Shown here: positions 6,371 through 21,255 of the stretch, one piece after another
Position numbering within the stretch: position 1 is the stretch's first letter
Layout: each line of letters begins with the position of its first letter
Origin: Gemmatimonadaceae bacterium
GTDB taxonomy: Bacteria; Gemmatimonadota; Gemmatimonadetes; Gemmatimonadales; Gemmatimonadaceae
Assembly (NCBI GenBank): GCA_035692325.1
Contig: DASSIC010000492.1
Location: 1 to 27,441 of the forward strand
Direction: 5' to 3'
DNA length: 27,441 nucleotides
Program-made: the position numbers and the translations under genes
The notes under the pieces: generated by a model
The model's input: the letters and a program-made list of their open reading frames with translations, nothing else
What the model was told of the DNA's origin: nothing
The model's database searches: none

Positions 6371-9361
6371 TCAGCCCATCTTGGTCTCGAGCCAGTTCTT
6401 CCCGGCACCGACGTCCACGACCAGCGGCACGGCGAGCGACGCCGCGTGCTCCATCTCATGCTTCACCAGTGCGGTGACGGCCGAGAGCTCGTCGGCCGGC
6501 GCCTCGAACACCAGCTCGTCGTGCACCTGTAGCAGCATCCGCGCGGCGAAGCGCTCCCCGTCGAGCCGGTCACGGATCCGGATCATGGCGATCTTGATGA
6601 GGTCCGCCGCCGATCCCTGAATGGGCGAGTTGGCGGCGGTCCGTTCACCGAACGCGCGAATGTTGAAGTTGCGGTCGCGCAGTTCCGGGATGTAGCGCCG
6701 ACGCTTGAAGATGGTCTCCACGTATCCGTGCGCGCGCGCATACTCGACGGTGGAGTCGAGAAACTCCCGGACCTTCGAGAATCGGACGAAGTACGTCTCG
6801 ATGAAGGCCTTCGCTTCCGCGTGGGCGATCTTGAGCTGGCGCGAGAGGGCGTGCGGCCCCTGGCCGTAGATCGTGGCGAAGTTGATCGTCTTCGCCCGCG
6901 CCCGCATCTCCGAAGTCACCGACTCCAGCGGTACGTCGAAGATGAGCGCGGCCGTCTGCCGATGGATGTCGCCGCCGGATTGAAAGGCCTGCACGAACAG
7001 GGGGTCACCGGACAGGTGCGCCAGGAGCCGAAGCTCGATCTGCGAGTAGTCCGCTGCGAGCAGCAGCCAGCCCGCCCGCGGAATGAAGCCGCGCCGGATG
7101 TCGCGTCCGAGCTCGCGCCGAATCGGGATGTTCTGAAGGTTCGGCTCCGTGGACGAGAGTCGGCCGGTCGCCGCCACGGTCTGGTTGTACGACGTGTGCA
7201 CGCGACCCGTCCGCGGATTCACCAGGGCGGGCAACGCGTCGATGTACGTGCTCTCCAGCTTGGACAGCTCTCGATACTCCATGAGCAGCACGGGCAGCTC
7301 GTGTCCCGCTTCAGCAAGCTCCTGGAGCACCGTGGCGTCGGTCGACGGACCCGTCGCCGTCTTCTTGAGGATCGGCAGCTTGAGCCGCTCGAACAGCACC
7401 TCGCGCAGCTGCGGGTTCGAATTGATGTTGAACTCGCCCCCCGCGCTCACATAGATCTCCTGCTCCACCCGCTGGCGCTCGCGTGCGAACCGCTCCTTGA
7501 GCGATGCGAACAGCGCGCGATCGATCTCGATCCCTTCCCACTCGAGATCCGCCAGCACGCCGACGAGCGGGATCTCGACGTCGCGATACAGCTCGTGGAT
7601 CTGCTGCGCCTCGAGCTGCGGCCGGAAGCGCTGCTCGAGCTGCCATACGACGTCGACGCTCTCGCACGAATAGTCACGCGCGCACGACACGGGCACGACG
7701 TCGTACGGGAGCTGCTGCCGGCCCTTGCCGCACAAGTCGTCGTAGCTCGTCATCGTGTGGTCGAGGAACTCCAGCGCGAGCAGATCGAGCCCGTGCGACC
7801 GCCGACCTGGATCCAGGACGTAGCTCGCCACCATGGTATCCGAAACGAGACCCCCAACAGCGATTCCGGCGCGGCGCAGCACGAGCATGTCGTACTTTGC
7901 GTTCTGGGCCACCTTGGGGACCGCTGGATCCTCCAGCAGTGCACGCAGCGGCGCCATCGCGTCGTCATCGAGCGGCGGCAGGTTGCGCACGGGCGGAGCC
8001 CCTGCCGCCAGCGCGCGCGCCGCAATGCTCGACGGCTCCGCGGCCTTCGCGGCCTTCTTTGCGCGCGGCCGCTTTGGTTGCGCCTCGTTCGCCTCGTCAG
8101 CGTCGCTGCCGGGGTCCGTATCACCGAGCAGCAGGTTTCCCTGCGTTGGCTCGAGGGCCCTGTGGCGGAGCGGCAGATAGTAGGCCTCGCCGATGCCGAC
8201 GGCGATCGAGAGTCCGACGAGCGTGGATCGCAGCGGATCCACCGCCTGCGGGCTGTCCGGCTCGATGACGGTCTCCGTATCCAGCGCGACGTAGGGCGCG
8301 TTACGCGCGCGGTCGAGCACGCGCCCGAGCGCCTCCAGCGTGTCCACCGTCTGGTAGTTCGTGGTGGGACGCGCCGCCTCGGCCACACCCTCTGGCGCAC
8401 CGGGCAACGGCGCGGCGGCGGCCGCCGCCACGTCGCCAAGGTTGCGGGCCAGCGTGTTGAACTCGAGTTCGACGAACAGCTGGCGCAGACGCGCCGTGTC
8501 CGGCTCGCGCACACGCATCTCGTCGAGCGCGAGGGTGAGCGGTAGATCGTCGCGAATGGTTACTAATTCCTTCGACAGGCGCGCCAGATGGGCCTGTTCC
8601 TGGAGCGCCTCGCGCGGACGCTTCTTCGTCAGCGTCGGCGCTGCCGCGAGAATCGCTTCGAGATCGCCGTATTCGGCGACGAGATCGCGCGCCGTCTTGT
8701 CCCCGACGCCCTTCACCCCCGGAACGTTGTCGGACGTGTCGCCGACGAGCGCGAGATAGTCCGTGACGTGCGCCGGCGGCACTCCCAGTCGCTCCGCGCC
8801 GTTCTCCACCGACACCCACTGCTCTTCGACGCTCGCCGGTCCACCGCGCCCGGGATTCAGCAGCCACACGTTTGGCTGCACGAGCTGCTGGAAATCCTTG
8901 TCGCCCGACACGATCACGACGTTCACCCCGGCCGCGACACCCTGCGTCGCGAGCGTTCCGATCACATCATCCGCCTCGTAGCCCTTGAGCGAGAGGATCG
9001 GAATGCGATACGCCTCGAGCAGCTGGCAGATCCGCTCCATGCCCGTGTCGAAGTCCGACTGGAGCTCCTCCGTCAGCTTCTCTCGCGTCGCCTTGTACGC
9101 CGGATATCGCTCGTGCCGGAAACTCAGCCCGGAATCGTGCACCCAGCCGAGATACTCGGGGCGATGCGACGCGAGCAGGCGCTGCACGAAGTTGACGATT
9201 CCCCACGCCGCCGAGGTGTTCTCGCCGCGCGCGGTGGTGAGGGGACGCGAGATCAGCGCGAAGAACGCGCGATAGATCAGCGCGTATCCATCGATGAGGA
9301 AGAGCCGAGGGGCGTCGGGCCTGGTCGCGGCCGGCGGAGTGGCGAACGTGGGATCGGTCAC
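6371..9361 (-). CDS. polA: DNA polymerase I
   Basis: 5'-3' exonuclease motifs (LIDGYALIYRAF, EADDVIGT, SGDKD, GDTSDNVPGV), 3'-5' exonuclease domain (LDTET, NAKYD) and polymerase motifs A (DYSQIELR), B (RARAKTINF..IYG), C (QVHDEL). Start GTG 9361 or ATG 9400. Confidence 0.97.
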   Translation of the reverse strand: MTDPTFATPPAATRPDAPRLFLIDGYALIYRAFFALISRPLTTARGENTSAAWGIVNFVQRLLASHRPEYLGWVHDSGLSFRHERYPAYKATREKLTEELQSDFDTGMERICQLLEAYRIPILSLKGYEADDVIGTLATQGVAAGVNVVIVSGDKDFQQLVQPNVWLLNPGRGGPASVEEQWVSVENGAERLGVPPAHVTDYLALVGDTSDNVPGVKGVGDKTARDLVAEYGDLEAILAAAPTLTKKRPREALQEQAHLARLSKELVTIRDDLPLTLALDEMRVREPDTARLRQLFVELEFNTLARNLGDVAAAAAAPLPGAPEGVAEAARPTTNYQTVDTLEALGRVLDRARNAPYVALDTETVIEPDSPQAVDPLRSTLVGLSIAVGIGEAYYLPLRHRALEPTQGNLLLGDTDPGSDADEANEAQPKRPRAKKAAKAAEPSSIAARALAAGAPPVRNLPPLDDDAMAPLRALLEDPAVPKVAQNAKYDMLVLRRAGIAVGGLVSDTMVASYVLDPGRRSHGLDLLALEFLDHTMTSYDDLCGKGRQQLPYDVVPVSCARDYSCESVDVVWQLEQRFRPQLEAQQIHELYRDVEIPLVGVLADLEWEGIEIDRALFASLKERFARERQRVEQEIYVSAGGEFNINSNPQLREVLFERLKLPILKKTATGPSTDATVLQELAEAGHELPVLLMEYRELSKLESTYIDALPALVNPRTGRVHTSYNQTVAATGRLSSTEPNLQNIPIRRELGRDIRRGFIPRAGWLLLAADYSQIELRLLAHLSGDPLFVQAFQSGGDIHRQTAALIFDVPLESVTSEMRARAKTINFATIYGQGPHALSRQLKIAHAEAKAFIETYFVRFSKVREFLDSTVEYARAHGYVETIFKRRRYIPELRDRNFNIRAFGERTAANSPIQGSAADLIKIAMIRIRDRLDGERFAARMLLQVHDELVFEAPADELSAVTALVKHEMEHAASLAVPLVVDVGAGKNWLETKMG

Positions 9362-9466
9362 GGAAGCGTGCGGCGAGATGACTGTCGATGCGCGAAGCAT
9401 AGAGCGTGCGCACGCGCCGCGATACGGTGACCGCCGAGGCAGCACGATGACGGTCCCCAAAACGGC

Positions 9467-9492
9467 ACCGCCTGCCACGCGGGGCAGGCGGT
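9467..9492 (-). terminator. Hairpin downstream of the cold-shock gene, probable intrinsic terminator
   Basis: Perfect 10-bp stem ACCGCCTGCC/GGCAGGCGGT with a 6-nt loop, 30 nt after the csp stop, followed on the minus strand by GCCGTTTT (U-tract slightly offset). Confidence 0.55.
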
Positions 9493-18332: not shown

Positions 18333-19445
18333 TCAATCCACCAGGCGGAGCGGCATCACCAGGCAGAGGTAGCTCGCGGGATCGTTCCATCCTTCCGGCT
18401 CGACGGTGGCCGCGCGCTCCGGCGCCTTGAAGGTGAGCTTCACCTCCTCCGTCGGAATGTATCGCAGGATCTCGAGGAGATAGCTCGCATTGAAGCCGAT
18501 ATCGAGCTGATCGCCGGTATATCGCACCGCCAGCTCGTCGGTCGCCTCGCCAAGATCCGGTGTCTGCACGCTGAAGCGTAGCATCCCCGAGTTGAAGGAC
18601 AGTCGAATCCGATGCGTCTGATCGGACGCGATCACCGACATACGCTTGAGCGCGCTCGTGAGCGCCACCTTGTCGGCGATGGCGATGCGGTCGTTGTCCT
18701 TCGGAATGACCTGATCGTAGTTCGGATACGGTCCCTCGATCAACCGCGTGTAGACCGCGGTGAACGGGGAGCGGAAGCCGAGATGATTGTCGCCGCGGGC
18801 AATCTCCAACTCTTCGTCGGCCGGAAAGAGCCGGCGAATCTGCTCGAGCGCCTTCGGCGGAACGATGAGGTCCGTCGCCGGCGCACCACTCGACTTGATC
18901 GGCACTTCCATCTTCGCCAGGCGATGCCCGTTCGTGGCGACCATCCGCATCGAGTCGGGCTTGAGCTCCCACAACACCCCATTGAGAATGGGCCGACTCT
19001 CCTCGGTGCTCACGGCGAACGACGTATGACCGATGAGCTTCTGCAGATCGCCCGACCGGATGCGCCAACTTTCGTTGAAGCGCACCGTGGGGAAGCTCGG
19101 AAACTCGTCCTTGGGCAACCCGAGGATCTTGAAGTGCGAACGCCCGCAGTCGAGCGTCACCCGCTGTTCGCCAGCGGCCGCCATCTTCACCGGCGACGGC
19201 GGGAGCTCCCGGGCGATCTCCGTCAGCTTCTTCGCTGGGATCGTGATGGCTCCGGTGGTCTCGACGTCGGCGGAGACCTCGGTGCTCACGGCGATATCCA
19301 GGTCAGTCCCCGACAGCCGGATGCCCTTGTCGGTGGTCTCGACCAGGATGTTCGCCAGCACCGGCAGCGTGGTCTTCGTGGGAATGCTGGCCGCAACGGC
19401 GGCGAGTCCCTCCTGAAGCTTCTCCCGGGAAATCGTGAACCGCAT
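18333..19445 (-). CDS. dnaN: DNA polymerase III beta sliding clamp
   Basis: MRFTISRE..., GTDLD, VATNGHRLA, LIEGPYPNY, FNASYLLE, VMPLR; AGGAG SD before ATG 19445. Confidence 0.97.
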   Translation of the reverse strand: MRFTISREKLQEGLAAVAASIPTKTTLPVLANILVETTDKGIRLSGTDLDIAVSTEVSADVETTGAITIPAKKLTEIARELPPSPVKMAAAGEQRVTLDCGRSHFKILGLPKDEFPSFPTVRFNESWRIRSGDLQKLIGHTSFAVSTEESRPILNGVLWELKPDSMRMVATNGHRLAKMEVPIKSSGAPATDLIVPPKALEQIRRLFPADEELEIARGDNHLGFRSPFTAVYTRLIEGPYPNYDQVIPKDNDRIAIADKVALTSALKRMSVIASDQTHRIRLSFNSGMLRFSVQTPDLGEATDELAVRYTGDQLDIGFNASYLLEILRYIPTEEVKLTFKAPERAATVEPEGWNDPASYLCLVMPLRLVD

Positions 19446-19531: not shown

Positions 19532-19722
19532 GGCATGTTGAGATGTGGATGAATACTCGCAAGCCTCGTAGCCGACGGGACTTGCACGGAATTTCCACGT
19601 GTTGACTGCATGTGGATGCAGAATGTTCTCCACGTTGATACTCCTCATCCGGGCCCCAAATTGACGATATCCAGGGGGCGCTGGGGGTAGCTGGGGATAA
19701 ACTAGCAGCGACCGGCCGCTGC

Positions 19723-19731
19723 TGTGGATAA
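19723..19731 (-). promoter_or_regulatory. DnaA box (perfect)
   Basis: TTATCCACA on the minus strand. Confidence 0.85.
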
Positions 19732-19747: not shown

Positions 19748-21139
19748 CTACCCGGCAAGACCCTCGAGAAGACTGCGAAGCTTTCCGACGCGTTGCGCGA
19801 AGGACGGCTCCTCCTTGATGGTTCCGGCCACACGTTCCAGGCTGTGAATCACGGTGGAGTGGTCGCGGCCCCCGAAGGTGGCTCCGATTTCGACGAGCTG
19901 TAATCCCAGGAGCTCCCGCATGAGGTACATCGCGACCTGACGCGGGGTCGTGAGCGCCTTGGTCCGCGTCTTGGAACGCAGCCCCTCCGGGGTGACTCCC
20001 CACTCCTTGGCGACGGCGTGCTGGATCGTCTCGACGTTCAGGCTGGCGCCGCTCCCGCCGCCGGACTCACCTGGACGGAGCTTGTCCCGCAACGCTTCCC
20101 GTGCGACGTCGACGGTAATCTCCCGATGCTTGAGCGAGGCATACGCGAGCAGCTTGATGATCGAGCCCTCCAGCTCGCGAACGCTGGACCGCACGTGCTC
20201 CGCGATGAAGCGGATGACGTCCTCGGGAATCGTCATCTCGAGGTGATCGATCAGCGCCTTGTTGCGCAGGATGGCGATGCGATGCTCGAGGTCGGGCAGC
20301 TCGATGTCAGCGACCATCCCCCACTGGAAGCGACTCACCAGCCGCGCCTCGAGGCCGGGGATCTCGGACGGGGGGCGATCACTCGTGAGAATGATCTGTC
20401 TTCCGGCTTCGTAGAGGGCGTTGAAGGTGTGGAAGAACTCTTCCTGCGTCGCTTCCTTGCCCTTGAGGAACTGCACGTCGTCGACGAGCAGCATGTCGGT
20501 CTCACGGTATCGGCGCCGAAAATCCTGGGTCGTGCGCGTCTGGATCGAGCCGATCATCTCGTTGGTGAACTGCTCGGTCCCGATGAATGTGATCCGGATC
20601 TCCGGGTTGCGGCGCAGCACGTCGTGGGCGACCGCCTGCATCAAATGGGTCTTGCCGAGCCCGGTGTCGCCGTACAGGAACAGCGGGTTGTAGACCTTTC
20701 CCGGCGCCTGGGAAACGGCCGCCGCCGCCGCCGCCGCGAGCTCGTTCGACTTGCCGATCACGAAATGTTCGAACGTGTAGCGCTCGCTGAGCTGTGCGTT
20801 GATGCCGCCCTGTTTCTGTCGCTGTTCTGGCGCAACGGCAGCGGCAGGTGGGGCCACGAACAGGTCCATCTGGTTGCGGGTCTTGCGTTCCTCGTGGACG
20901 CGAAAAACGACCAGGAGCGGATGGCCAAGCGCGATCGGCGCAAGGCTGGTCAGCAGCTCAGCGTGCTTCGACTCGTTCCAGTCGGCGGCGAACTGGTCGG
21001 GCGACCCGATGACGATGGTATCGCCCTCGAGGGCCAATGGTTCGGTCGGTTCCAACCAGGTCCGAAACGTTTGTTCCGGCAGCTCATGGCGGGCGCGATC
21101 GAGAAGGCGCGTCCAGACTTCGGTCGCCGAGAGCGTCAT
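19748..21139 (-). CDS. dnaA: Chromosomal replication initiator DnaA
   Basis: YTFEHFVIGKSNELA, Walker A GDTGLGKT, Walker B LLVDD, QEEFFHTFN, RELEG, FGGRDHSTV. Start ATG 21139; the track start at 21250 covers promoter DNA. Confidence 0.98.
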   Translation of the reverse strand: MTLSATEVWTRLLDRARHELPEQTFRTWLEPTEPLALEGDTIVIGSPDQFAADWNESKHAELLTSLAPIALGHPLLVVFRVHEERKTRNQMDLFVAPPAAAVAPEQRQKQGGINAQLSERYTFEHFVIGKSNELAAAAAAAVSQAPGKVYNPLFLYGDTGLGKTHLMQAVAHDVLRRNPEIRITFIGTEQFTNEMIGSIQTRTTQDFRRRYRETDMLLVDDVQFLKGKEATQEEFFHTFNALYEAGRQIILTSDRPPSEIPGLEARLVSRFQWGMVADIELPDLEHRIAILRNKALIDHLEMTIPEDVIRFIAEHVRSSVRELEGSIIKLLAYASLKHREITVDVAREALRDKLRPGESGGGSGASLNVETIQHAVAKEWGVTPEGLRSKTRTKALTTPRQVAMYLMRELLGLQLVEIGATFGGRDHSTVIHSLERVAGTIKEEPSFAQRVGKLRSLLEGLAG

Positions 21140-21148
21140 GGAATGGAT

Positions 21149-21157
21149 TGTGGATAA
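21149..21157 (-). promoter_or_regulatory. DnaA box (perfect) in the dnaA 5' UTR
   Basis: TTATCCACA ending 9 nt before the dnaA ATG. Confidence 0.85.
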
Positions 21158-21176
21158 CCTGGAAGGCGGGGGAGCG

Positions 21177-21205
21177 AAGCTATTTCCGCCCTGTGGAAAA
21201 AGCAA
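21177..21205 (-). promoter_or_regulatory. dnaA promoter with an overlapping DnaA box
   Basis: TTGCTT (21205-21200), 17 nt, TAGCTT (21182-21177); DnaA box TTTTCCACA (21200-21192) overlaps the -35 and spacer. Confidence 0.6.
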
Positions 21206-21255
21206 ACCTGCCGACCCTCGGCCAGTCCCCGCATTCGTCGAGCGCTTCACTTGTC

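Follow-up and report, generated by a model that had tools for sequence, protein, structure and literature searches.

The replication initiator DnaA of the order Gemmatimonadales carries a pentapeptide of the β-clamp-binding type, QMDLF, in the linker that follows domain I, and this motif probably is functional and lets DnaA dock directly on the sliding clamp DnaN. Its conservation and clamp-type sequence suggest a direct link between initiator and clamp in a chromosomal DnaA, and we infer both clamp binding in the cell and the effect of that binding. As far as we know, little has been learned about how bacteria outside Proteobacteria and Firmicutes prevent DnaA from initiating again at the origin, because Hda, YabA, and SeqA are absent there. 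If DnaA does contain a clamp-docking peptide, a single protein would suffice to sense loaded clamps and thereby ongoing replication. The initiator itself would then join the list of clamp clients, and its motif could serve as a sequence signature in the search for comparable regulation elsewhere among the phyla.

The motif lies in a complete DnaA. In the window (the whole stretch of DNA analysed, 27,441 nucleotides), dnaA occupies 19748..21139 on the reverse strand, stop codon included, and encodes a chromosomal replication initiator of 463 aa. The open reading frame runs stop to stop over 19748..21250 on the same strand, and we set the start at the ATG at 21139 because orthologs, which are found throughout the phylum, align from MTLSATEVW. 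Three Pfam domains score above their cut-offs (PF11638 DnaA_N, residues 7–66; PF00308 Bac_DnaA, 117–277; PF08299 Bac_DnaA_C, 369–437), with domain I, the AAA+ domain III, and the helix-turn-helix domain IV all in one chain. The reverse complement of window positions 20858–20872, CAGATGGACCTGTTC, translates to QMDLF (residues 90–94, reverse strand) and stands in the context VVFRVHEERKTRN-QMDLF-VAPPAAAVAPEQRQKQGGINAQLSERYTFEHF or, with an alternative extent of the downstream flank, VVFRVHEERKTRN-QMDLF-VAPPAAAVAPEQRQKQ. All five positions match the clamp-binding consensus Q-[LM]-[SD]-[LF]-F. The Pfam coordinates put the pentapeptide between domains I and III and therefore in the domain II linker; the original prediction had located it there, directly after domain I, and both the reverse-strand reading and the Pfam domains bear this out.

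This DnaA is a bona fide chromosomal initiator at an origin. Immediately downstream of dnaA lies dnaN (18333..19445, reverse strand, stop codon included), which encodes a β sliding clamp of 370 aa with three DNA_pol3_beta Pfam domains; its start codon, opening MRFTISREKL, was placed from the ortholog alignment. The closest PDB relatives of the protein are β clamps (e.g., 6ams and 1mmi), and it aligns over its full length with the clamps of E. coli and P. aeruginosa. On the side of dnaA opposite to dnaN are yidC and mnmE. DnaA-box-like sites with at most one mismatch number seven in the window against 1.06 expected (0/100 shuffles reach seven), and they cluster on both flanks of dnaA: three TTATCCACA-like sites in the dnaA–dnaN spacer (19544..19731, reverse strand) and two boxes just 5′ of the dnaA start codon (21149..21200, reverse strand). 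Further along, about 9 kb downstream of dnaN, the window holds a gene for full-length DNA polymerase I with 5′–3′ exonuclease, 3′–5′ exonuclease, and family A polymerase domains (6371–9478, reverse strand); an MCP-type chemoreceptor and two histidine kinases are encoded between the two.

The island around QMDLF is conserved throughout the order. We compared 66 DnaA orthologs, each from a genome or a record; they cover three families and many genera and are 59–94% identical to the DnaA of the window. R-x-Q-[MI]-D-[LFM]-F-[VI] stands at the same place in 66/66 (four unpublished genomes, G012, G089, G128, and G211, enter the presence tallies only). None of the 66 departs from the arginine at −2, Q, D, or the closing F, M is conserved in 97% and V in 98%, and the pentapeptide also occurs as QMDFF, QMDMF, and QIDLF. 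In the window protein the extended island reads RNQMDLFV (residues 88–95; 20855..20878, reverse strand). Entropy is 0–0.2 bits at Q, M, D, F, and V compared with about 3 bits from +8 onward, and the roughly 20 residues after the island are hypervariable; an E-E-R-x-x-R stretch before it is also fairly conserved. One further genome (G220) has the motif in a shifted frame, probably because of an indel in that assembly. The codons of the island vary synonymously (CAG/CAA, GAC/GAT, TTC/TTT, GTN, CGN); it is therefore the peptide, rather than the DNA, that is under selection, and a DNA-level element beneath the motif is ruled out. The expected pattern, a conserved island amid variable linker sequence throughout the phylum, thus holds order-wide and stops there: the island is specific to Gemmatimonadales and is not phylum-wide.

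Structure prediction places QMDLF in an exposed, flexible segment. In an AlphaFold2 model of DnaA (50-row alignment, mean pLDDT 84), domain I is folded up to residue 81–83, and residues 85–112, the disordered domain II linker (20804..20887, reverse strand), have pLDDT below 50 and no regular secondary structure before domain III begins. The motif sits 8 residues beyond the last strand of domain I, and the model leaves it unpacked; burial against that domain, which would have spoken against a docking peptide, was not seen.

When, as had been proposed, the clamp (DnaN, 370 aa, 40-row alignment) was co-folded with DnaA residues 74–120 (43-row alignment), the predicted complex placed TRNQMDLF in the canonical clamp pocket, with a score of 0.72 (0.72, 0.70, and 0.72 in three runs) against 0.00 for the best of three controls, a result in which the model's memory of solved complexes may play a part. 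The mark was reached by 58/80 solved complexes and 2/110 mismatched pairs, counts that are only roughly valid here because we used our own alignments. The three runs share at least 72% of contacts, and the partner, at pLDDT of at least 43, is folded with low confidence, as expected for a peptide. Confidently predicted contacts involve T87–F94 and P97 of DnaA and T171, G173, H174, L176, P241, Y243, V246, N319, A345, L362, and M364–R367 of DnaN. In the pocket of the E. coli clamp, their counterparts are T172, G174, H175, L177, P242, V247, N320, S346, V360, and M362–R365, and they match the TDGHRL and VVMPMRL segments, which form the lining of the peptide-binding site. The pocket residues of DnaN are invariant or at least 90% conserved among 40 orthologs; covariation between the pocket and motif position 4 (L/F/M) is excluded, the pocket being invariant. 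Many clamp–peptide complexes have been solved, so the pass may stem from model memory, and what the modelling indicates is likeness to a clamp-binding peptide, not binding by this particular copy.

An initiator that carries its own clamp motif would differ from the known chromosomal arrangements in where the motif resides. In RIDA (Hda or HdaA with the DNA-loaded β clamp, in E. coli and Caulobacter), ongoing replication feeds back on DnaA, and there too a short clamp motif in a disordered segment ties the initiator to the clamp; however, that motif belongs to a separate paralog of DnaA domain III that supplies an arginine finger, whereas here it belongs to DnaA itself. YabA, an adaptor in Bacillus subtilis and other Firmicutes, connects DnaA with DnaN and holds initiation back while leaving ATP hydrolysis unstimulated. 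A motif built into DnaA would, in our judgement, most likely behave in the same manner, although YabA is a separate small protein. The clamp-binding motif of Hda is N-terminal and reads QLSLPL (PMC11139829, PMC5397184). TrfA, the initiator of plasmid RK2, contacts the clamp without an intermediary and has a clamp-binding pentapeptide of its own (PMC4980987, citing Kongsuwan 2006, Dalrymple 2007, and Wawrzycka 2015), and deletion of its L137-F138 abolishes clamp binding and replisome assembly at oriV in vitro (PMC4980987, a review). TrfA and other plasmid Rep proteins with clamp motifs are thus replication initiators with the motif built in, but TrfA is a plasmid Rep unrelated to DnaA whose contact promotes assembly at oriV, while the carrier described here is a chromosomal AAA+ initiator.

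The pentapeptide itself resembles those of canonical clamp clients, among them Pol II (QLGLF), Pol III α (QADMF), Pol V (QLNLF), and MutS (QMSLL) (PMC11139829). Shared with them are the pattern Q-hydrophobic-[SD]-hydrophobic-F, an exposed segment, and, as modelled here, the same pocket; those clients, however, work on clamp-encircled DNA as polymerases or repair enzymes, and DnaA is not known as one of them. A 2024 review of clamp clients names Hda as a clamp partner and not DnaA (PMC11139829), and no two-hybrid signal was obtained between DnaA and DnaN of S. aureus (PMC3762901). Full-text literature searches found no description of a chromosomal DnaA with its own clamp motif. The original remark that no such DnaA was known agrees with these searches for the chromosomal protein but needs qualification for initiators in general, since TrfA of RK2 has such a motif (PMC4980987).

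Docking, if it occurs, could act on initiation in either direction. We favour replication-coupled restraint, because both known chromosomal initiator–clamp links, Hda and YabA, are negative and because the tether brings no arginine finger; a negative outcome is nevertheless a tentative reading. Gemmatimonadales DnaA would dock, without an adaptor of the Hda or YabA type, into the hydrophobic DnaN pocket that lies between domains II and III. DNA-loaded clamps at and behind the forks would then capture DnaA by its linker, and captured DnaA would be kept from oriC, or steric hindrance would affect the adjacent domain I, through which DnaA loads the helicase and self-associates, or both. Such capture would amount to YabA-like tethering or titration, the outcome that we think most likely. 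Alternatively, a clamp dimer that holds two DnaA molecules might juxtapose them so as to promote ATP hydrolysis, as in RIDA, a reaction for which a bare tether without an arginine finger offers no evident catalyst.

The main rival to replication-coupled restraint is a positive, TrfA-like role, in which, once the origin is open, the DnaA there would recruit DnaN or the clamp-loader complex, or pass it on, and so speed assembly of the first replisome. The predicted docking in the co-fold serves this reading equally, dnaA and dnaN adjoin each other at an origin rich in DnaA boxes, and TrfA sets a precedent for an initiator with its own clamp-binding motif. However, the bacteria that have been studied need no contact between initiator and clamp to assemble their chromosomal replisome, Hda and YabA both act negatively, and the sequence gives no sign of the direction of the effect. 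We consider a positive role unlikely.

It is also conceivable, if rather improbable, that the island docks a different partner, such as a lineage-specific regulator, the replicative helicase or a DciA-type loader, or another part of DnaA, and that it resembles a clamp motif by coincidence. The arginine at −2 and the valine at +5 are highly conserved and lie outside the textbook clamp consensus, which could point to another partner; short hydrophobic linear motifs serve many partners, and the variants QIDLW and RLDFPE of other lineages (below) deviate from the textbook form. Against this, five of five consensus positions are matched by a pentapeptide whose chance expectation, counted as Q[LM][DS][LF]F, is about 8e-4 per 463-aa protein, the modelled docking is in the canonical pocket while controls score zero, and no candidate partner has been identified. 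An island that serves no partner at all, whether as a structural extension of domain I, a protease signal for DnaA turnover, or a DNA-level constraint, is very improbable: its place 8 residues past the last strand of domain I, the fairly conserved E-E-R-x-x-R before it, and the proteolytic control of DnaA in some bacteria would suit such a role, but residues 85–112 are predicted to be disordered and unpacked, the freely varying synonymous sites rule out a DNA-level element, and a clamp motif accounts better than a generic degron does for purifying selection on exactly Q, D, and F.

Related islands exist beyond the order, and those of two other Gemmatimonadota lineages, found at the same linker position, speak for a clamp-binding role. 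The exact motif ends at the order boundary within Gemmatimonadota. Among 94 full-length DnaAs taken from the best 150 cluster representatives in a library of 1.84 billion proteins, it occurs in four, all with a Gemmatimonadales context, and no motif of the QMDLF type was found among the roughly 70 DnaAs of other phyla. Within the phylum, we did not find it in families f4, f5, f8, f9, f11, and f12, and the DnaAs of family f7 are mostly without it, one having ELDLF (the f7 look-alikes PE[IVL][ST]V and AF[ST]LP were discarded as too loose). Family f10, from another class, has [DE]Q[IM][DNE]LW straight after domain I in 6/6 genera (L164, L201–L205), a tryptophan-ending variant at a linker position equal to that of QMDLF. 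Family f6 has [DE]RL[DV]FP[ED][IL] at the QMDLF position, right after domain I, in 5/5 genomes. In Terriglobia (Acidobacteriota), sampled at class level around a Terriglobales genome, 25/29 DnaAs have a Q-x-x-[LF]-D-[FW]-[DE]-S island 5–8 residues before the domain III box, and two named records carry it besides (L214–L243, L113, L091). By its sequence the Terriglobia island resembles the hexapeptide form of the clamp motif, and it has an RLDF core in common with the f6 island.

Taken together, the QMD[LFM]F, Q[IM]xLW, RLDFP, and Terriglobia Q-x-x-[LF]-D-[FW] islands could mean that direct initiator–clamp docking is old and widespread in bacteria without Hda and YabA, a proposal that we regard as somewhat doubtful. 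If true, it would amount to a built-in RIDA or YabA function that needs no adaptor.

Neither known adaptor was found in the order, as had been foreseen, and this lends the idea little weight. We searched 61 Gemmatimonadales genomes, 60 of them at least 90% complete. None has a match to Hda (TIGR03420) above the family cut-off, which is a strict one that only 1/14 control genomes passed, and all matches below it are DnaA, a tandem DnaA-like ATPase, or a paralog with domains III and IV. YabA (PF06156) was likewise found in 0/61, in a search whose control recovers it in B. subtilis and Lactococcus. We also found no separate Hda-like gene in five Gemmatimonadota genomes of other lineages (two of f7, one of f8, and one each of f6 and f10, the last two carrying variant islands). 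Because Hda is missing in motif-less and variant lineages as well, its absence is compatible with direct docking and is not an argument for it. A complementary distribution of motif and Hda is ruled out by the same five genomes, and most other orders of the class lack both the motif and a separate Hda-like gene, so the motif is not required to compensate for a missing Hda.

Two DnaA paralogs were considered as hidden adaptors and set aside. The tandem DnaA-like ATPase (contig C283 of the source assembly; L002:70-2589, reverse strand) has about 640 aa and two DnaA-type AAA+ domain III modules without domain I or IV, is conserved across the order (relatives L170–L186), and adjoins a gene for an MglA-like GTPase. 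We reject it as a canonical clamp adaptor: it begins at the domain III box with no N-terminal extension, an alignment of 16 copies holds no conserved Qxx[LF]F, and its own islands, DEFxxFL and a C-terminal REKxVWxWP...R[LI]xEE, both lack Q. A third DnaA paralog of about 340–350 aa consists of domains III and IV only, is 38–41% identical to DnaA, and starts at the LNPRYTF box; it carries no motif and is rejected as a clamp adaptor too. It was not found in the source assembly (80% complete) and is present in some genomes of the genus (L206–L213, e.g., G023:C33 and G002:C91).

Other proteins of the same organism carry clamp-type motifs. In the source assembly, a 3.66-Mb, 80%-complete MAG, Q[LM][DS][LF]F has seven matches in stop-to-stop frames of at least 120 aa (4.26 million residues), and at least two of the remaining matches besides that in DnaA resemble true clamp motifs, one in a family-B polymerase and one in a DUF72 protein. 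The family-B DNA polymerase has DQLSLFAP about 15 residues from its C-terminus (C323:63-2699, reverse strand, L189; also C534), and its QLSLF is counted twice among the seven because it lies on two contigs. This is the clamp motif expected of a Pol II-type enzyme, which indicates that the lineage uses the canonical signal. The DUF72-family protein (C168:1901-2779, reverse strand, L188) ends in QMSLF, a C-terminus that resembles a clamp-binding one.
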